Notes under the pieces: model-generated
The model's database searches: none
What the model was told of the DNA's origin: nothing
The model's input: the letters and a program-made list of their open reading frames with translations, nothing else
Translations under genes and position numbers: made by a program
In this document: positions 3,688 through 32,000 of the stretch, in pieces
How the letters are laid out: each line of letters starts with the position of its first letter
Position numbering within the stretch: the stretch's first letter is position 1
Assembly (NCBI GenBank): GCA_024277355.1
Contig: JAJRVL010000004.1
Span: 450,001-482,000, forward strand
DNA length: 32,000 nucleotides
Source of the DNA: an archaeon
GTDB taxonomy: Archaea; Iainarchaeota; Iainarchaeia; Iainarchaeales; 1-14-0-10-31-34
Direction of reading: 5' to 3'

Positions 3688-4467
3688 TTACCTTACATAA
3701 GATAATCCTTTTTCTGGAATGTCTGACTGCTGTTCGTCTAATTGTTTGCTTAACTGCTGAAATGCTTTTTCTATTTCTTTTGATTCTTTTTCTATTTGAT
3801 TCATTTTAATTTTAAAACCGAATTTAGCTGAAAGTAATTCAATTAATTTTTTTGCTGCACCATGATCGCCGTAAATTAATCTTGCATTGGTTTCTCCCAT
3901 TAAGCAGGCTCCTTTAATTTTATGTTCTAAACCTAAACCAATAATTAATCCTGCAGCCCCTGAAATTAATCCTTCTTCATGACCTTCAATTGCCTTAAGT
4001 TTTTTGAATGAAGCCAGAGTTTTTTTGTCTGTTGCTGCAACAATTACTTTTGGTTCAGAACTCATTCTTTTTTCGCCTACATTTATTCCGGCTAAAGTAT
4101 AAATTTCTGTTACCCCTAAATTTTTTGCAGTTAAAATTATTTCATTTGCAAATTCATAATGTTCTTTTGCAGCAGAAATGCTTGCATCTAATGCAGGCTG
4201 AACAGGACCAGCTAAAAAAACATAATCTTTTCCTTTAAACTTGAAAGAATAAAACGCATCTTTAATTAATTCAATAACAGAATTTTTGGTATGAACACTT
4301 GGAGGAAAAGAATCAGAAGTTATTTCAGCAATCTTTTCTGCTTTAACCTGTTTCAGCATATAATCCACTGCAATTTTTCCAACTAACCCTATTCCAGGAA
4401 GCCCTGAAAACATTACAGCATTCTTGAATTTTTTTTTCTTTAAAAATTTTACATTAGTCATAAACAT
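3688..4467 (-). CDS. PAC2-family proteasome assembly chaperone-like protein (COG1938)
   Basis: GLPGIGLVGKIAVDYM N-terminal motif, ~260 aa, in the conserved archaeal position downstream of aIF2-alpha. The track start at 4470 is a TTG. The ATG at 4465-4467 overlaps the aIF2-alpha stop as TGATG, which suggests translational coupling. Confidence 0.75.
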   Translation of the reverse strand: MFMTNVKFLKKKKFKNAVMFSGLPGIGLVGKIAVDYMLKQVKAEKIAEITSDSFPPSVHTKNSVIELIKDAFYSFKFKGKDYVFLAGPVQPALDASISAAKEHYEFANEIILTAKNLGVTEIYTLAGINVGEKRMSSEPKVIVAATDKKTLASFKKLKAIEGHEEGLISGAAGLIIGLGLEHKIKGACLMGETNARLIYGDHGAAKKLIELLSAKFGFKIKMNQIEKESKEIEKAFQQLSKQLDEQQSDIPEKGLSYVR

Positions 4468-5231
4468 CAATTTTCTATTCTTTTAAATTCAGCTTTACCG
4501 CCTGATTTAGTTATTATTTTTATTGCTTCTTCAGATGACTCTTTTAATTTTTTTTCTGCTGACTTGTAATCAGAAGAAACAACTTCAATTCGGTATTTTC
4601 CTGAACCAAAATAAATTATTGAATCTTTTCCTGAAATTTTTTGTGCTTTTTCTAATGCTTCTTTTATGACTTCAATTCCATTTTCCTTAAAAGAAGTTAA
4701 ATCAAGAATTCCTTTTACTTTTTTTTGAGGAACAACAACATTTTTTTTAATTAAATCCAGTAAATCAGAACTCCAGGGTTCTTTAATTGAAGAAGGAACT
4801 TTTTCTGTTGAAGCAATTTCATTAAAAGCTAAAGGCAGAGATTCAAATTCATTTAATAATTGTTCAGCAGTGTTTTCCCATACTTCATCAAAAGAAACTT
4901 TTTTTGTTTTAGCTAAAACTTCAAGTAATTTTGTTGCTCTGACTAACCTGTTATATTCTTCTATTTTGTTTCTCTGCATTCCTGAAGAAACTTTAGTTAA
5001 ACTTAAATCAATCTGGTTTTTTGTTGGATCAATTGAAAGAACTTGTGCTGCTCGGATTTGATTTTCTTTAACAAAATTTCTTATATTTTTAACCCATCCT
5101 GAAGTAACCTGAGAAATATGCACAAAACCTTTCTGATGATTGTATTCAAGTAATTCAACAAAAACTCCGTAAGGGAGAACTTTGGTTACTCTTACTATTG
5201 CTACTTCATTTATTTCAGGTATTTCTTCCAT
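4467..5231 (-). CDS. eif2a: Translation initiation factor aIF2 alpha subunit
   Basis: N-terminal S1 domain (EVAIVRVTKVLPYGVFVELLEY..GFVHISQVTSGWVKNIRNFVKENQ), then helical and alpha-beta C-terminal domains; 254 aa. Confidence 0.9.
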   Translation of the reverse strand: MEEIPEINEVAIVRVTKVLPYGVFVELLEYNHQKGFVHISQVTSGWVKNIRNFVKENQIRAAQVLSIDPTKNQIDLSLTKVSSGMQRNKIEEYNRLVRATKLLEVLAKTKKVSFDEVWENTAEQLLNEFESLPLAFNEIASTEKVPSSIKEPWSSDLLDLIKKNVVVPQKKVKGILDLTSFKENGIEVIKEALEKAQKISGKDSIIYFGSGKYRIEVVSSDYKSAEKKLKESSEEAIKIITKSGGKAEFKRIEN

Positions 5232-9122: not shown

Positions 9123-9848
9123 TTACAAAATCATGTGCGCTAAATGAAAGTTTATTTTGCTTTGGCCAATTGAATAAGAAATTTTCATTGGAGCATCGCC
9201 TTTTAATTCTAATTTAATTTTTGATTCAGGCTCTGCTTCTTTAATTATATTTGTAAGAAAATTCAATGAATATTTGCTTACTACTTCTGAATTAGTTTTA
9301 ACTATAACATTTTTTGCTTCTTTTGCAACAGTTTTAAGTGTTCCTGCTGAACCTCTTGCTTCAATAATAAATTGATTATCTTTTGCTTTTAACACAACAG
9401 AACTTCCAAATAAAGCAGCATCCTTTAATGATTCTTTTAAAATTCTTGCATTAATTTCAATTGTTGCATCAAATTTAGTTGAAGGAACATTAATTTCTTG
9501 TTCTGAAACATCAATTAAAGGCAATTTAAAGCTTCTTGATAATTCGCCAGTGAAATGAACTGACATTTCATTGTCAGTTAAATCTAAAGTCATTTTGTCA
9601 TTTTGTAAAATTCTTGACATAATTTTATTTAATTCAACTAAATCTACTCCAACATAAGAAGGTTCAATTGAATACTTATCAAAAGAGCTTTTTGCAATAG
9701 AATAATCAACTAAAACTATCTGAGAAGGATCAATTGCCTTAAAGCTTATTCCTGAATCATTAAAACGAAAATTTCCTTCAGAAATAAAAGTAGATAAAGC
9801 ATTAATTGATTTAGCCCAAAAATCTGCTTTTTTTAATTCAATTGCCAT
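9123..9848 (-). CDS. pcn: PCNA sliding clamp, divergent paralog (PCNA-1)
   Basis: FKAIDPSQIVLVDYSI, VGVDLVELNKIMSR and the two-domain length (241 aa) fit PCNA. The track start at 9851 is a TTG; the ATG is at 9846-9848. The C-terminus is FHLAHMIL instead of the usual ..LAPR(I/V)E. Confidence 0.85.
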   Translation of the reverse strand: MAIELKKADFWAKSINALSTFISEGNFRFNDSGISFKAIDPSQIVLVDYSIAKSSFDKYSIEPSYVGVDLVELNKIMSRILQNDKMTLDLTDNEMSVHFTGELSRSFKLPLIDVSEQEINVPSTKFDATIEINARILKESLKDAALFGSSVVLKAKDNQFIIEARGSAGTLKTVAKEAKNVIVKTNSEVVSKYSLNFLTNIIKEAEPESKIKLELKGDAPMKISYSIGQSKINFHLAHMIL

Positions 9849-9923
9849 CAAAAACCCCCTTTACTGCAAATATTAAGTATAATATACTCATTAATGCTTT
9901 TAAATTATTCTAAAAGGCTAAAT

Positions 9924-14937: not shown

Positions 14938-15684
14938 TTAACTTGATTCAATTCTTGGAGCCAAAAAATATTCTAATTCTGCGTTTCCAATTGAATAAAT
15001 TATTTTTATTGGCGCATTGCTTTTCATTTGAAGTTCAATTAAAGTATTTGAATCAGCTGACTTAAGCATATCCTGTAAATAGTTCAAAGGAAACATTGCA
15101 TAACATTCTTTTTTTGCATTTAATTCCTTTAAGTTTTCATCTTCTTTTGTTATTTCATTAATTGATTCGCCTTTAGATGAATTAGCTTTAATAAAAAAGT
15201 TTTTTGATGTAACTCCTAAAGTTACATGAGTACTGACAAGCAAAGCATCTTTTAATCCGTCTTTAATTAATCCTGCGTTTGCTTTAACTACTGCATCTGA
15301 TTCAAGTTTAGGAGAAGGCAATTCAGTTGAACTAATGTCTAATAATTGAATAAAAAAGTTTCTTGTAGAAGAACCTTTTAACTGAACTTTTAGTCTTGAT
15401 TCTTTTTCATTTAATTCTAAAATTAATTTTTCTCCTTGTTTGCTTCTGCTCATAATCTGGCTTAAATAATCTAAATCTAATCCTATTTTTGTTTCTTTTT
15501 CAAGTTCATATTCAGAAAAAGCTGTTTTAGGCAGTTTAAAGTCAATCATTGAAATCTGACTTGGATCAGTTGCCTTTAATTTTAATCCTTCTTCTGAAAT
15601 AGTAAATTCTGCTTCATCAATTAAAACAGAAATTGCATCAATTGCTTTTTTGAATTCAACTGCATTATCTAAAACTAATTTCAT
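14938..15684 (-). CDS. pcn: PCNA sliding clamp, canonical-looking paralog (PCNA-2)
   Basis: LKLKATDPSQISMIDFKL, IGLDLDYLSQIMSR and the canonical C-terminus EYFLAPRIESS; 248 aa. Confidence 0.9.
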   Translation of the reverse strand: MKLVLDNAVEFKKAIDAISVLIDEAEFTISEEGLKLKATDPSQISMIDFKLPKTAFSEYELEKETKIGLDLDYLSQIMSRSKQGEKLILELNEKESRLKVQLKGSSTRNFFIQLLDISSTELPSPKLESDAVVKANAGLIKDGLKDALLVSTHVTLGVTSKNFFIKANSSKGESINEITKEDENLKELNAKKECYAMFPLNYLQDMLKSADSNTLIELQMKSNAPIKIIYSIGNAELEYFLAPRIESS

Positions 15685-27730: not shown

Positions 27731-28456
27731 ATGAAAGCAGTAATTTTAGCAGCAGGCAAAGGATTAAGGATGAAACCTTTAACTAAAGACAAACCAAAAC
27801 CATTGATTAAAATAAAAAATAAAAGTTTTCTGGAAAGACAATTAGAAGAATTAAATAAAACAAAAATAACTGAAGTAGTAATTGTTGTTGGTTTTTTAGG
27901 AAAACAAATAATAAAAGAATTTAACGGAAAACAATCTGAAGAAAAAAAAGGAATTTTCATTGGAGAATTTAATGGAATTAAATTATTTTTTGTTTTTCAG
28001 AAAGAACAAAAAGGAACAGCAGACGGAGTAAACTGTGTTAAAGAATTAATTTCAAAAGATTTTATTCAGATTAATGGAGATTTAATTTTTGAAGCAGAAT
28101 TAATTTCAGAGTTAATTAACAAAAAAGAAAATGTTTTAGTTTTAAGGGAAACTGCTAATACAGGAAATTTTGGGTTGGTTGAAGTTAATAAAGACAAAGT
28201 AATTAAAATAACTGAAAAACCAAAAGAGTTTTCAGGAAAAGGATTAATTAATGCAGGAATTTATCGTTTTACCCCAGAAATATTTAATGCAATTGAAAAC
28301 ATTGAATTAAGTGAAAGAAATGAATTAGAATTAACTGATGCAATAAATTTGTTAGCAGAAAAAAGCAAAGTTTCTTTTATTGAAGTTAAAGGACAATTTT
28401 TTGATATTGGAACAATTGAAGAATTAAAGAAAGTTGAAAAAGAAATAGGAAAATAA
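27731..28456 (+). CDS. Sugar-phosphate nucleotidyltransferase (NTP_transferase family)
   Basis: AVILAAGKGLRMKPLTKDKPKPL N-terminal signature and GTADG motif; 241 aa. Confidence 0.85.
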   Translation: MKAVILAAGKGLRMKPLTKDKPKPLIKIKNKSFLERQLEELNKTKITEVVIVVGFLGKQIIKEFNGKQSEEKKGIFIGEFNGIKLFFVFQKEQKGTADGVNCVKELISKDFIQINGDLIFEAELISELINKKENVLVLRETANTGNFGLVEVNKDKVIKITEKPKEFSGKGLINAGIYRFTPEIFNAIENIELSERNELELTDAINLLAEKSKVSFIEVKGQFFDIGTIEELKKVEKEIGK

Positions 28457-28473
28457 ATAAGAAAAAGAGAGAA

Positions 28474-28740
28474 TTAAACTCCTGTTTCAGGGTAACTAAA
28501 AGGACCAGGATATTTAATTGGGGCTACACCGTCTCCAGAACCTAAAGTTGTTGGATACAAATGAGGACCAATAATATCATCTCCAGTTGTACCGCCGTCA
28601 CCTAACAAAACAGGCTGAGGATACAAATTAGGATCTCCAAGATCATCTAATTCAGGAATTAAACCCCAATCAGATATATGAGCAGAAGCAAATCCTGCTA
28701 AAGCAATCAAACAAATTCCTATTAATAATAATTTCTTCAT
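28474..28740 (-). CDS. Small secreted Gly/Pro/Asp-rich peptide, paralog A (unknown family)
   Basis: 88 aa: signal peptide MKKLLLIGICLIALAGFASA|HIS, then an acidic G/P-rich mature part ending TGV. GGAGG lies 8 nt upstream of the ATG. It has a close paralog at 30975..31214. Confidence 0.7.
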   Translation of the reverse strand: MKKLLLIGICLIALAGFASAHISDWGLIPELDDLGDPNLYPQPVLLGDGGTTGDDIIGPHLYPTTLGSGDGVAPIKYPGPFSYPETGV

Positions 28741-28786
28741 TTCTTACGCCTCCAAAATAAACAATTAACTATTATAAGATTATTAG
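28474..28786 (-). repeat. Duplicated gene-plus-leader unit, copy A
   Basis: Shares with 30975..31262 a run of more than 30 identical nt across the start codon, the identical 17-nt leader acgcctccaaaataaac, and an attattag box 46 vs 48 nt upstream of the ATG. It also shares 33/35 (28511-28545 vs 31048-31082) and 29/30 (28601-28630 vs 31078-31107) internal identities. Confidence 0.75.
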
Positions 28787-28808
28787 AATATTTAAATGTT
28801 TTGAAGTT

Positions 28809-29495
28809 TTAAAACTTGAAGGTTTCACCGGGTTGCATTAAAATTGCTTTTGTATCTAAAACGCTTTTTTCTATTTTTCTTTTGAATTCATTTGCATCTG
28901 CTTTAATCATTCCAAAAGTATTGTAATGCATTGGAACAACAAATTTTGGTTTAATTAATTTTGTTGCTTTAACTGAATCAACACAATCCATTGTATAAGT
29001 TCCGCCGATTGGAAGCAAAGCCATATCAGCATTAATTTTAGCAAAATCATCAATTAACGCAGTGTCTCCTGAAAAATACAGGCTTTTTCCTTTAGCTGAA
29101 ACAAGAAAACCAATAGGATAAAATGATTCAGGATGATGAGCTGTTACTGCTTCAATATTTAAATTTCTTACATTTAATTTCTGATTCATGCTTAAAGGAC
29201 ACAAAAACCGTCTTTCTAATTCAAGTTCGTTTAGAATGCTATCATGAGCTACAACTAAAGAATTATTCTTTTTTACAATTGATTCAATTGCTTTTTTGTC
29301 AAAATGATCAAAATGTTCATGAGAAACTAAAACTAAATCAATGTCATTTAAATCTGTTTTTCTTGCTTTACAAGGAATAACTCTGTTAAATGCAGGGTCA
29401 GAACAAGTGTTATTAATAAAAGGATCAAATAAAATTTTTGTTCCATTAAATTCTACTTTAAAAAAAGAGTGACCAAAAAAAGTTACCTTAACCAT
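28809..29495 (-). CDS. MBL-fold metal-dependent hydrolase (UPF0173-like)
   Basis: VKVTFFGHSFFKV N-terminus, HxHxDH (VSHEHFDHFD), later His/Asp ligands; ~228 aa. The track start at 29507 is a TTG; the ATG is at 29493-29495. Confidence 0.8.
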   Translation of the reverse strand: MVKVTFFGHSFFKVEFNGTKILFDPFINNTCSDPAFNRVIPCKARKTDLNDIDLVLVSHEHFDHFDKKAIESIVKKNNSLVVAHDSILNELELERRFLCPLSMNQKLNVRNLNIEAVTAHHPESFYPIGFLVSAKGKSLYFSGDTALIDDFAKINADMALLPIGGTYTMDCVDSVKATKLIKPKFVVPMHYNTFGMIKADANEFKRKIEKSVLDTKAILMQPGETFKF

Positions 29496-29617
29496 AAACA
29501 ACAACAAGAGTAGGTAATGCGCAAATATAAAGCACTACTATAAACAAACAAAAAAAACAGGAAAAAACAGAAAATACTGTTTTAATATTTTTTTGGGTCA
29601 TAAACATATAGATTAAT

Positions 29618-30919
29618 ATGAAAAAATTGGTTTTTGTTTTTGTTTTATTATTAATGCTTAATGTATTTGGAGTAGAAATACAAAAAGAAAACATAAACAT
29701 TATTGTAAATAAAACAGGAAATGCTTTAATTGAAGAAAGTTATTTCATTTCTTTTTCTGATGAAAACGAATTAAATTTATTCAAAGAAAAAATAAGCGAT
29801 GGCATTTCAGCTGAAATATTAAATGAATTTAAACTTGAAATTAAATCAAGAATAGAAGAAAACAAAGGAACTGTTTCTTTTGAAGAACAAGATGAAAATA
29901 AAAAAATAAAATTAAATTATTCTTCAGATAAAATTTTTTTAATGAATAAAAGAGTTTTATTTGATGAATTCACTTTAAACAAAGACAGATTTTCTTTTCT
30001 TTTATCTGAAAACAAAACAGTTTTTCCTGAAAATTTTTCTTTAAGGTTTGTTCTGCCGAATGAATCAAAATCAATTTTAACCGTTCCTGAAACAAAAGTT
30101 TTTTCTAAAACAACTGAATTTAAAGGAATAAATTCAAATGAATTTTCTTTAAGTTATTTAATTGAAAAAAAACCAGAAAAAATTGCAATAAAGAAAACTC
30201 AAATTGAAATTAACGTAAAAGAAAATGGTTTTGGGTTTATTTCAGAAAAATATTTCTTTGAATTCAGGAACCAGGAAGAATCAGAGTACTTTATTGAAAA
30301 AGCACAAAACAATGGTTCAAGTTTATTAAGCTGGATTGCATTTGACAACAGAATTTTCCCCCATATAAAAGAAAATGAATTTGACTTAAAAAATGCTTCA
30401 GTTGAATTTGTAGAAAACGGATTAGAAAACAGTTTTTTGCAGATTATATATGAAAATGAAACACCAGTATTCATAGAAAAAAAAGAAAGACAAGGAAGAT
30501 TTGTTGAATGGGAATTTAACTTAAAAAAATTAAATGAATTTACTTCATCAGGATTAATAATTTTTCCTGAAAACTTTTTCTTAGAAATAATTCTTCCATT
30601 AAATGCAGAAATAAAAGAAACAGATTTAGAGGAAAGAAACGGAAAAGTTTTAATGCAAGGATATAAAAGTACAAGTAAAATAAACATTGTTTATGTAATA
30701 AAAGAAAATATTGCTCCTGCATTTAATTTGTCTTTAGTTATTCAAAGAATTGTTTCAGAAAAAGAAGCAAGCCCAATTATTGCAGGAATAATACTTTTAA
30801 TTTTAGTTATAGTTTATTTAAAAAAAGACAGTTTAACTGAAAAAACAGAAAACTTTATTATTAAAAATTCTTCAATTAAAAAAAGAGAACAAACAGAAGA
30901 AATAGAAATAGATGAATAA
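29618..30919 (+). CDS. Surface-anchored protein: signal peptide, two tandem ~175-aa homologous modules, C-terminal TM anchor
   Basis: N-terminal MKKLVFVFVLLLMLNVFG and C-terminal SPIIAGIILLILVIVYL followed by a charged tail. The internal duplication shows in INIIVNKTGNALIEESYFISF vs IEINVKENGFGFISEKYFFEF, FPENFSLRFVLPNESK vs FPENFFLEIILPLNAE, and FSLSYLIEKK vs INIVYVIKEN. Confidence 0.7.
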   Translation: MKKLVFVFVLLLMLNVFGVEIQKENINIIVNKTGNALIEESYFISFSDENELNLFKEKISDGISAEILNEFKLEIKSRIEENKGTVSFEEQDENKKIKLNYSSDKIFLMNKRVLFDEFTLNKDRFSFLLSENKTVFPENFSLRFVLPNESKSILTVPETKVFSKTTEFKGINSNEFSLSYLIEKKPEKIAIKKTQIEINVKENGFGFISEKYFFEFRNQEESEYFIEKAQNNGSSLLSWIAFDNRIFPHIKENEFDLKNASVEFVENGLENSFLQIIYENETPVFIEKKERQGRFVEWEFNLKKLNEFTSSGLIIFPENFFLEIILPLNAEIKETDLEERNGKVLMQGYKSTSKINIVYVIKENIAPAFNLSLVIQRIVSEKEASPIIAGIILLILVIVYLKKDSLTEKTENFIIKNSSIKKREQTEEIEIDE

Positions 30920-30974
30920 AAAAAACTTTTAGAAAAAAACTTGAACAAAAAAATAGAAAAAGGAGAATAAATTT

Positions 30975-31214
30975 TTAGACTCCTGTTGCTAATTCGTCTC
31001 CGTCTGTTGGATCATCAACTGCTCTGCAACCAGTGTCTCCACCAAGATATTTAATTGGTGCTACGCCGTCTCCAGAACCTAACAAAACAGGTTGAGGATA
31101 CAAATTATCACCCATTCCATCTAATTCAGGAACAAAACCTGTGCTATCAATAAGAGCAGAAGCAAAACTGCTTAAAACAATTAAACAAATTCCTATTAAT
31201 AATAATTTCTTCAT
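30975..31214 (-). CDS. Small secreted Gly/Pro/Asp-rich peptide, paralog B (unknown family)
   Basis: 79 aa: signal peptide MKKLLLIGICLIVLSSFASA|LID, the same core PELD..GD.NLYPQPVLLGSGDGVAPIKY, and the same TGV end. GGAGG lies 8 nt upstream of the ATG. Confidence 0.7.
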   Translation of the reverse strand: MKKLLLIGICLIVLSSFASALIDSTGFVPELDGMGDNLYPQPVLLGSGDGVAPIKYLGGDTGCRAVDDPTDGDELATGV

Positions 31215-31262
31215 TTTTCACGCCTCCAAAATAAACTAAATCGATTATATTGTAATTATTAG
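30975..31262 (-). repeat. Duplicated gene-plus-leader unit, copy B
   Basis: See copy A. Same orientation, about 2.2 kb apart (28787..30974 between the two units). Confidence 0.75.
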
Positions 31263-31279
31263 GAAATAAAAAGGTTTGC

Positions 31280-32000
31280 TTAAGAAAAATAATTCTTTAA
31301 AGAAGACTGGGTTTCTTGTTTTACTTCTTCAGTTTTTTCTTCTGATTGTTTTTCTTTGGTTTTTTCAAAGAAACTTCCATTTATTCCTTCTAAAGGTTTT
31401 CTTGCTGCGCCAAAAAAATTAATTGTTTTTGCTTCATCAAAAATTACTTTAACTTTTTTTGTTTCAGGTTTAGTGTTTAATAAAAAAGCAATTTCTTTTT
31501 CAGTTAACTCAAATTTAGCTGAAAACCTTACTGCAAAATCTTTATTAGAAAAACATTGTTTAATAAAAGGCAAATCTGATGCAATAATTTCTTTTGTAGA
31601 GGAATGAATTTCATTTGACATTTTTGATGCAATAGATTTTTTTGTTTCCCTTAAAGAAGAATTTCTGTTTAACCTTGAAATAAAAACAGGGAACTGGTAC
31701 ATAATAAAATTCCTGTTAGGTTTTTCTTTTGACATGCTTACTCCAGTTGACATTAATTCAGAACTATATCTTAGAAAGCCGTAATGCTGTCTTCTTCTAA
31801 TTCTTCCATTAAATACATCTGCTTTGCTTAATTTTTCAAAAGCATTAGCTATTTCATTTATATCAGAAAATTGTCTTGGAATGTTTTCTTCAATCCATTT
31901 CATTAATAAATCTGAATCAATATCGGCAGAAAACCTTGCGTTTCTTGCTTCACTAAAAGTTTCTGCAGTAAAAATTTTTCTTAAAACCTTAAAGACATCT
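31280..32000 (-). CDS. rfcL: Replication factor C large subunit, C-terminal part (N-terminus beyond the right edge)
   Basis: The frame stays open upstream of the track's Met to position 32000 (..DVFKVLRKIFTAETFSEARNARFSADIDSDLLMKWIEENIP..). It has LSKADVFNGRIRRRQHYGFLRY and a canonical C-terminal PIP box QSSLKNYF. Confidence 0.8.
   Translation of the reverse strand, partial: DVFKVLRKIFTAETFSEARNARFSADIDSDLLMKWIEENIPRQFSDINEIANAFEKLSKADVFNGRIRRRQHYGFLRYSSELMSTGVSMSKEKPNRNFIMYQFPVFISRLNRNSSLRETKKSIASKMSNEIHSSTKEIIASDLPFIKQCFSNKDFAVRFSAKFELTEKEIAFLLNTKPETKKVKVIFDEAKTINFFGAARKPLEGINGSFFEKTKEKQSEEKTEEVKQETQSSLKNYFS

Follow-up and report, generated by a model that had tools for sequence, protein, structure and literature searches.

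Among the described systems closest to the genes reported here are the variable surface lipoproteins of mycoplasmas, Vlp of Mycoplasma hyorhinis and Vsp of M. bovis. The genes in question, pepA and pepB, encode two related small peptides with a putative export signal, and lie in a 32,000-nucleotide (nt) stretch of archaeal DNA (positions 450,001 to 482,000 of the forward strand of contig JAJRVL010000004.1, assembly GCA_024277355.1), hereafter called the window. Compared from their descriptions, the mycoplasma systems share several properties with pepA and pepB: they belong to small-genome, host-dependent organisms, the 5' untranslated region and the signal are conserved across copies, the exported part is repetitive and changes in length by in-frame repeat units, and the alleles of close strains differ; repeat-unit changes and allele differences were also seen here (81-nt units in alleles, and a 60-nt difference between pepA and pepB). 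The mycoplasma proteins, however, carry a lipobox cysteine and are encoded in multi-gene clusters with phase-variable promoters or site-specific inversion, whereas the genes described here encode peptides with no lipobox and no anchor, are present in one or two copies per genome, and have no homopolymer switch or recombinase. Promoter and leader were identical in the alleles compared, and an on/off switch of the Vlp/Vsp type was not found in them.

A strongly conserved signal followed by a hypervariable mature secreted peptide is also a property of the precursors of conotoxins and frog-skin antimicrobial peptides, but these are eukaryotic, have a pro-region, give products with a cysteine framework or a cationic amphipathic character, and form large families; the peptides in the window are anionic, rich in Gly, Pro and Asp, and without a cysteine framework. 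No sequence similarity was found to Vlp/Vsp or to the conotoxin and frog precursors. The Phr pheromones of Firmicutes (TIGR04429, Phr_nterm) are similar in being preproteins of 40-100 amino acids (aa), in which a Sec/signal peptidase I signal precedes an exported part that varies, but Phr genes lie beside the gene of their Rap receptor, while no adjacent partner was present here and the match of a single peptide to the Phr profile had E = 0.66. The small secreted effectors of symbionts and pathogens are likewise short, rapidly evolving, furnished with a signal peptide, polymorphic in presence or absence and devoid of recognisable domains; that class is defined by behaviour and not by homology, and has been described mainly in eukaryotic microbes. 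pepA and pepB belong to a new and very small protein family, the general kind of which is already known. We favour, as the probable interpretation, self-contained genes for exported acidic peptides, in which a conserved export module is combined with a fast-changing mature part that would have an extracellular or cell-envelope role.

pepA (28474-28740, minus strand, 88 aa) and pepB (30975-31214, minus strand, 79 aa) were confirmed as open reading frames (ORFs) and are protein-coding paralogues with 58% identity (BLASTP, E = 2e-24). Their parts are as follows.

28681-28740, minus strand: predicted signal peptide of pepA, codons 1-20, MKKLLLIGICLIALAGFASA
28477-28680, minus strand: predicted mature part of pepA, 68 aa, with 10 Asp+Glu against 1 Lys+Arg; it contains two LYPxxxLGxGDG units, one GLIPELD and one DGVAPIKY
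28741-28808, minus strand: putative promoter and leader region of pepA, with conserved boxes
28788-28802, minus strand: BRE/TATA-like element of pepA, AAAACATTTAAATAT, similar to the archaeal consensus
28779-28786, minus strand: CTAATAAT box of pepA, by sequence match
28746-28762, minus strand: 17-nt leader of pepA, with GGAGG at 28749-28753
28457-28473, minus strand: T-rich 17-nt spacer after the pepA stop codon, TTCTCTCTTTTTCTTAT, a probable oligo-T terminator, directly adjoining the stop codon of the NTP-transferase gene (27731-28456, plus strand), which is convergent with pepA
31155-31214, minus strand: predicted signal peptide of pepB, MKKLLLIGICLIVLSSFASA, by sequence rules
30978-31154, minus strand: predicted mature part of pepB, 59 aa, with one LYP unit, GFVPELD, DGVAPIKY and a DPTDG tail
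31215-31279, minus strand: putative promoter and leader region of pepB, with conserved boxes
31264-31277, minus strand: BRE/TATA-like element of pepB, AAACCTTTTTATTT, similar to the archaeal consensus
31255-31262, minus strand: CTAATAAT box of pepB, by sequence match
31220-31236, minus strand: 17-nt leader of pepB, with GGAGG at 31223-31227
30920-30974, minus strand: T-rich 55-nt tail after the pepB stop codon, similar to the pepA tail only in its first ~20 nt

The leader and signal regions of the two genes were 89% identical across 87 nt. The 17-nt leader (GTTTATTTTGGAGGCGT) occurred exactly twice in the window (mean of 0.08 matches in shuffled sequences, with 3 mismatches allowed), GGAGG stood 8 nt before the ATG in both genes, and an identical run of 34 nt across the ATG was the longest shared by them, with additional exact blocks of 13-17 nt beyond it. 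These observations bear out the preliminary description of this DNA, which had reported the ORFs, their paralogy, the common leader, the position of GGAGG and a run of more than 30 nt over the start codon. The CTAATAAT box that it had placed 46 and 48 nt upstream was also found there (-46 in pepA, -48 in pepB), though the more likely promoter element is the BRE/TATA-like box, downstream of which it lies: a promoter-like box, AAAC-N-TTTTTATAT, at approximately -62 to -48, and the sequence TTATTTT(T)GGAGG before the ATG were common to all the cassettes (9 compared). Because of its agreement with the archaeal BRE/TATA consensus and its conservation across the nine cassettes, AAAC-N-TTTTTATAT was assigned as a putative independent archaeal promoter, which would give a leader of ~25 nt.

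The differences between pepA and pepB were those expected of coding sequences. Three indels (3, 60 and 36 nt) were all in frame, eight codons differed synonymously only, and synonymous divergence (dS) was ~0.44 against a nonsynonymous divergence (dN) of ~0.20 (omega ~0.4, Nei-Gojobori), with dS being lower in the signal (0.19) than in the mature part (0.57). The 60-nt difference, placed between two TTAGGT repeats, accounted for the different number of LYPxxxLGxGDG units, and a scrambled patch was present at codons 13-16 and 21-28. GC content was 0.39-0.41 over both genes, compared with ~0.25 around them, in agreement with the earlier remark that they are GC-richer than their surroundings. Such islands in an AT-rich genome are a classic signal of structured non-coding RNA, but no Rfam family was matched at gathering score (only chance-level matches, E >= 0.035), the GC excess was confined to codon positions 1 and 2 (0.48), and the in-frame indels, the synonymous-only changes and the conservation of protein with different codons in 14 family members all argue for coding; the RNA explanation can be regarded as refuted for practical purposes. 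GC at third codon positions (GC3) was 0.15-0.18 in the peptide genes and 0.10-0.16 in neighbouring genes, so the islands result from amino-acid composition (Gly, Pro, Asp and Ala codons), and a foreign origin of the two genes, for which their GC-richness might be taken as a sign, was rejected.

Direct searches did not reveal the family. A pepA search against 5.8 billion clusters (k-mer and phmmer) returned only pepA itself and pepB, an exhaustive HMMER search of 1.84 billion representatives with a profile of the mature part added only spurious repeat-driven matches (the long repetitive P0004-P0007), and pattern scans of genome, metagenome and viral collections gave no family member. The family was reached via synteny first, and then by a single search with a five-sequence profile. 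The neighbouring MBL-fold hydrolase places the window among the Iainarchaeota (Diapherotrites, DPANN), and the neighbouring 433-aa protein led to L081, the closest available relative (84% identity), which carries a 71-aa ORF exactly at the position of pepA. This positional orthologue shares with pepA its promoter-like box, Shine-Dalgarno sequence and signal peptide, but its acidic mature part has strongly diverged. A 77-aa ORF downstream of the MBL gene in L086 has SFASALIDSxGFVPELD in common with pepB; a 92-aa member at another convergent junction in L088 has DGEAPIKDFAPWGYPE in common with pepA, and the members from L086 and L088 both end in EAISDW. The five-sequence profile retrieved 14 intact homologous ORFs of 51-118 aa, all from Iainarchaeota assemblies, and the reading frame is conserved in relatives (14 members).

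The claim that the peptides fall outside any described family was also borne out. pepA and pepB had no hit in Pfam or NCBIfam, the 14 members gave only sub-threshold hits in Pfam-A and NCBIfam, of the kind expected for signal peptides, the best match among PDB profiles had E = 0.95, and no description of such a peptide family was found in the literature. The family to which pepA and pepB belong had not been described before and has been found in one sub-clade of the Iainarchaeota only.

Conservation in this family was concentrated in the N-terminus. The signal consensus, MKKLLLIAVCLIVLxSFASA, was near-identical in every member, with A18, S19 and A20 invariant in 14 of 14 and K3, L5 and L6 nearly so, and mean pairwise identity across the family was 64% for the signal and only 25% for the mature part. 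The opposite was seen for the secreted 433-aa neighbour in the same genomes (31% for the signal, 61% for the mature part). The proportion of synonymous differences (pS) in the signal-coding region was 0.2-0.7, on a par with that of GGR when the same genomes were paired; the signal is therefore conserved at the protein level. The mature parts were acidic in every member (5-17 Asp+Glu versus 0-5 Lys+Arg), contained 9-26% Gly, and were made up of the motifs G[FL][IV]xPx[LIV][DE], DGxAP[IV]K[Y], DPTDG and [LM]Y-P in varying number and order. ISDW was found at the start of mature pepA (HISDWGLIPELD, residues 21-25, window 28681-28668) and, in L086 and L088, at the C-terminal end of the peptide (...EAISDW), a pattern suggestive of circularly permuted modules or of genes that come from a longer tandem array.

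These peptides could be near-neutral young genes, in which the export module is kept as a mis-targeted hydrophobic peptide would be harmful, while the tail drifts, slips and is often lost. We consider such a dispensable family unlikely, although it is the main rival of the exported-peptide interpretation. It agrees with the mature parts being only ~25% identical, with the absence of a predicted fold, with the very small size of the family, with the patchy presence of the genes on a tree of TrxR and GGR, and with a probably frameshifted copy in L092. Against it, the motifs DGxAP[IV]K[Y], GxxxPxxD, DPTDG and EAISDW (the last in L086 and L088) persist where neighbouring genes have pS of ~0.5-0.6, conserved blocks of pepA and pepB show synonymous changes only, omega is ~0.4 and not ~1, all members are strongly acidic, and two intact copies have been kept in the window genome over a dS of ~0.44.

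Three regions typical of a Sec/signal peptidase I substrate make up the N-terminus: MKK, an uncharged hydrophobic stretch of 14 residues (LLLIGICLIALAGF), and ASA. By these sequence rules, which agree with the signal peptide and ASA site of the preliminary description, the preprotein would be exported by Sec and cleaved after ASA, with release of an unanchored acidic peptide. AlphaFold2 predicted a helix for residues 3-17 only, and a mature part without secondary structure (pLDDT ~50).

Other known signals and motifs were considered and rejected. A lipobox ([LVI][ASTVI][GAS]C) was not found at the end of the hydrophobic region across the family, where the only cysteine is Cys10, in the middle of the helix and preceded by I/V, and even this is absent from P0025, P0026, P0028 and P0034; LPAM_1 matches were sub-threshold (best E = 0.032). 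Archaeal class III (type IV pilin-like) signals are cleaved at [KR][GA] before a hydrophobic segment that stays in the mature protein, whereas here MKK is followed by LLL, with no G/A at -1 and with a conserved ASA after the hydrophobic segment. Archaeosortase/exosortase substrates (PGF-CTERM, PEF-CTERM type) were discarded, the C-termini (ETGV, LATGV, LDEV, AISDW, EDSGM) being acidic and hydrophilic with no transmembrane segment. The stretches DPTDG and DDPTDGDE lie outside the canonical DxDxDG and thrombospondin type 3 calcium-binding patterns, and Pfam TSP_3 gave no match, so cation binding is a guess based on composition only.

The strand antisense to the conserved 3' end of the MBL gene (window 28816-28926, plus strand) encodes ...LLNSFASALI..., a stretch resembling the signal c-region of the peptides together with their cleavage site, and the same was seen at L081 5177-5287 and L003 10567-10677. 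An origin of the signal-coding region from this antisense sequence was rejected for the window copies, whose similarity was not significant (reached in 66 and 169 of 500 shuffles); only the L086 copy was borderline (5 of 500), and its sequence there is T-rich.

The most interesting aspect of the family is its hypervariability among near-identical genomes. Five contigs from five samples (L089, L090, L091, L094 and L095) were compared, the flanks of which were 98.5-100% identical; L089 and L091 differed by 7 mismatches across 5.2 kb and had identical GGR genes. All five had the same promoter and leader and the same first codons in the peptide gene, while codons 10 to ~30, which take in the last part of the signal and the start of the mature peptide, occurred in two unrelated-looking versions, one with a 36-nt insertion, and an 81-nt in-frame repeat unit was present in one or two copies per allele. 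All four combinations of patch type and repeat number occurred (L089/L090, L091, L094 and L095), and pepA and pepB differed from each other in the same two ways, in the patch around the cleavage site and in the number of repeat units. The peptide gene also coincided with an apparent recombination breakpoint, with ~93% identity on the MBL side (L090 46-548 compared with L091 1-500) and 99.9% over 5.2 kb on the opposite side (L089 161-5374 compared with L091 503-5716).

A bolder hypothesis, which we hold to be doubtful, is that this is a contingency-type locus of DPANN archaea, in which promoter, leader and signal would be fixed while the mature N-terminus and the repeat number would be frequently reshuffled within populations, through slippage and through recombination of alleles or paralogues with one another. 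The variation would help the cell to recognise partner cells, host cells or viruses, or to evade them. If true, such a locus would correspond in archaea to the variable surface antigens of bacteria, with a soluble acidic peptide replacing the anchored protein.

A scrambled patch localised within otherwise identical sequences might also be produced by programmed hypermutation, by a diversity-generating retroelement, such as are known in DPANN archaea, or by another dedicated system, and the appearance of a copy at a new intergenic site might suggest that the cassettes are a small mobile element. Both are extremely unlikely. Adenine was found at 13 and 14 of the 37 mismatches between pepA and pepB, and at 5 and 1 of the 13 mismatches in the L089/L091 patch; there is no bias, which makes a diversity-generating retroelement unlikely. 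Neither the window nor the fetched loci contained a reverse transcriptase, integrase or transposase, the cassette ends showed no terminal inverted repeats or target-site duplication, and only two copies from the 526-kb contig were found.

In the exported-peptide interpretation that we favour, each gene would be self-contained, with a BRE/TATA-like promoter, a Shine-Dalgarno leader of ~25 nt, the ORF and a T-rich tail. The 20-residue N-terminus (MKK, a 14-residue hydrophobic helix and ASA) would target the preprotein to the Sec translocon, and signal peptidase I would cut after ASA, giving acidic peptides of ~40-100 residues without a membrane anchor; these would contain little Lys or Arg and much Gly, Pro and Asp, would probably be disordered, and would consist of a small set of short motifs. 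Expression and export would rely on a module that is held constant, while the exported part diversifies quickly, through in-frame gain and loss of repeat units and through replacement of a patch around the cleavage site and the mature N-terminus. Such peptides could act outside the cell or in its envelope via short linear motifs or as polyanions, with partner-cell contact and cation binding as examples. This role is our best guess, based on composition, evolutionary mode and the lifestyle of DPANN archaea, most of which are thought to be attached to or dependent on other cells.

Several points weigh against this interpretation. The family is tiny (14 clusters among 5.8 billion) and is often absent in close relatives, so that it can be dispensed with and its function might be slight. 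The data give no lead to any particular target, receptor or partner; export and cleavage are deduced from sequence rules; the low AlphaFold2 confidence is weak evidence for disorder because the alignment is shallow; and the alleles with one or two repeat units may reflect the collapse of tandem repeats in short-read metagenome assemblies.

The same small size, putative Sec/signal peptidase I export, conserved export module and hypervariable product, together with the allelic diversity among near-identical genomes and the likeness to the precursors of Phr-type pheromones, conotoxins and frog antimicrobial peptides, would also suit signalling or antagonistic peptides of a pheromone- or bacteriocin-like type, possibly processed further outside the cell, whose hypervariability would reflect specificity or an arms race. 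We judge this distinctly improbable: no receptor, immunity, modification or dedicated transporter gene was adjacent in any locus examined, the peptides are strongly anionic and high in Gly and Pro, and have neither a cysteine framework nor an amphipathic helix, unlike most known membrane-active antimicrobial peptides, and the Phr_nterm match was at chance level. Nor did the loci look like gene clusters for ribosomally synthesised and post-translationally modified peptides, bacteriocins or pheromones, since the nine loci differed in context and the neighbours were housekeeping genes with or without the peptide.

To our knowledge, very few exposed or released molecules of DPANN archaea are known. 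The family offers a compact and recognisable handle, and its allele variation is visible in public metagenomes; it might be used for tracking strain-level diversification in Iainarchaeota, for testing exported peptides in partner contact or cation binding, and for studying how a complete small gene is copied between convergent genes of a streamlined genome. If the peptides had no specific role, they would be a clean case of a young, dispensable family with strong constraint on the signal peptide only.

The genes around and between pepA and pepB were the following.

28809-29492, minus strand: MBL-fold hydrolase of the Lactamase_B_3 type, 227 aa, a conserved neighbour with its ATG at 29492
29618-30919, plus strand: 433-aa protein with predicted signal peptide and C-terminal transmembrane segment, conserved and divergent from the MBL gene
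31280-32000, minus strand: 3' part of the gene for the RFC large subunit, with the frame open to the end of the window

The order RFC large subunit, 433-aa protein, MBL, NTP-transferase, TrxR and GGR was kept in L002, L003, L084 and L087 without a peptide gene at either junction, and the convergent stop codons overlapped or nearly touched in these loci. The 433-aa gene was kept divergent from the MBL gene in relatives with and without peptide genes. In most of 80 MBL loci of the Iainarchaeota type, the gap downstream of the MBL gene was -30 to +40 nt; a peptide gene was found directly downstream of it in the window, L081, L086, L089-L091, L094 and L095, and other members were located at the FAD/GGR junction in L088 and beside HicAB/TFIIB in L092. 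Lineages with peptide genes were interleaved with lineages lacking them on a neighbour-joining tree of TrxR and GGR, which points either to an ancestral site from which the gene was lost repeatedly or to recombinational exchange. From its occupancy, the site downstream of the MBL gene, that of pepA, appears to be the usual and ancestral home of the family.

The RFC/433-aa junction, on the other hand, was occupied in the window only. The RFC stop overlaps the 433-aa stop in relatives or lies 5-8 nt from it, while in the window pepB is wedged between them, its T-rich tail and the gene with its promoter region (30920-30974 and 30975-31279) forming a ~350-nt insertion where L081 has an 8-nt spacer. 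pepB is a lineage-specific second copy, which would have landed between the convergent RFC and 433-aa stops in the window lineage only and would later have lost the 60-nt unit between the two TTAGGT repeats. The segment GATGATATTATTG, common to L081 and the extra unit of pepA, supports the loss of this unit in pepB after copying. Divergence between the window and L081 was 0.35-0.48, close to the dS of pepA and pepB, and the duplication is therefore about as old as this split and not recent, contrary to what had been proposed; of the suggested recent duplication or gene conversion, what stands is that the 5' end, and only this, looks homogenised or constrained, and its better preservation may be due to constraint or to gene conversion. 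Similarity 3' of the stop codons was not above that of shuffled sequences beyond ~20 nt (136 of 2000), so that it could not be shown that the pepB copy carried a 3' piece of the NTP-transferase gene.

pepA and pepB do flank the 2.2-kb segment as direct repeats, as previously noted, and the peptide gene is adjacent to and co-directional with the MBL gene in at least six loci. The peptides, the MBL hydrolase and the anchored 433-aa protein might accordingly be taken for one module, for processing or surface docking, with the repeats allowing excision or rearrangement of the segment, but this is very unlikely. The peptide gene downstream of the MBL gene recurs; the whole bracket does not, nor does it behave as a functional unit, with the gene order unchanged in relatives without any peptide gene and with family members also at the sites in L088 and L092. 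The MBL protein would be cytoplasmic, because it has no signal peptide, while the peptides would be exported, and each peptide gene has a promoter-like box of its own. Regarding the proposed rearrangements, direct repeats cannot invert a segment; excision is contradicted by the longest identical run being only 34 nt, by the two conserved genes that a deletion would take, and by the second site of L081, which is simply empty and not an excision scar. The MBL and 433-aa genes appear to be conserved bystanders, outside the peptide system, because the same order is found where peptide genes are missing.

Some further features of these neighbours and sites were recorded. The mechanically called MBL ORF starts at a TTG at 29507, while the homologues align from the ATG at 29492 (MVKVTFFGHS; window 29492-29507). 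The 433-aa protein is an internal duplication of a ~200-aa domain (29% identity between halves, E = 5e-6) with no Pfam domain, and proteins of ~259-264 aa with a similar N-terminal region are encoded upstream of the MBL gene in the distant L010, L023, L005 and L014. Stop-codon overlaps of 4-11 nt at the RFC/433-aa and MBL/NTP-transferase junctions were located at L002 8593-8596, L003 8578-8581 and 10674-10684, and L004 10681-10684.

At the MBL/NTP-transferase junction of L088 (7789-9172, equal to L082 3789-5172) there are genes for a 319-aa CarboxypepD_reg protein with an N-terminal hydrophobic segment and for a 139-aa membrane protein, and the junction therefore accepts different genes for exported proteins according to lineage. 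Between GGR and the peptide gene, L088 also has a pair of small ORFs (49 and 45 aa, at 4320-4774) on opposite strands, which might represent an insertion of the toxin-antitoxin kind. In L092 (5001-5391), the member P0027 (51 aa) occupies a third type of site, between a HicA/HicB pair, which it directly follows, and TFIIB; an overlapping ORF of 87 aa comes next, and P0027 is probably a longer copy with a frameshift. In a distant group, a conserved hydrophobic protein of 62-63 aa, apparently with two helices (MRFIEGFFALLA...VNWKYY) and unrelated to the peptide family, is encoded just downstream of the MBL gene (L008 10693-10881, L011 6634-6822, L012 2524-2712 and L013 10773-10964). The window is otherwise full of replication genes (small and large subunits of primase, GINS and RFC), and includes two PCNA paralogues within 6 kb (9123-9851 and 14938-15684, both on the minus strand).

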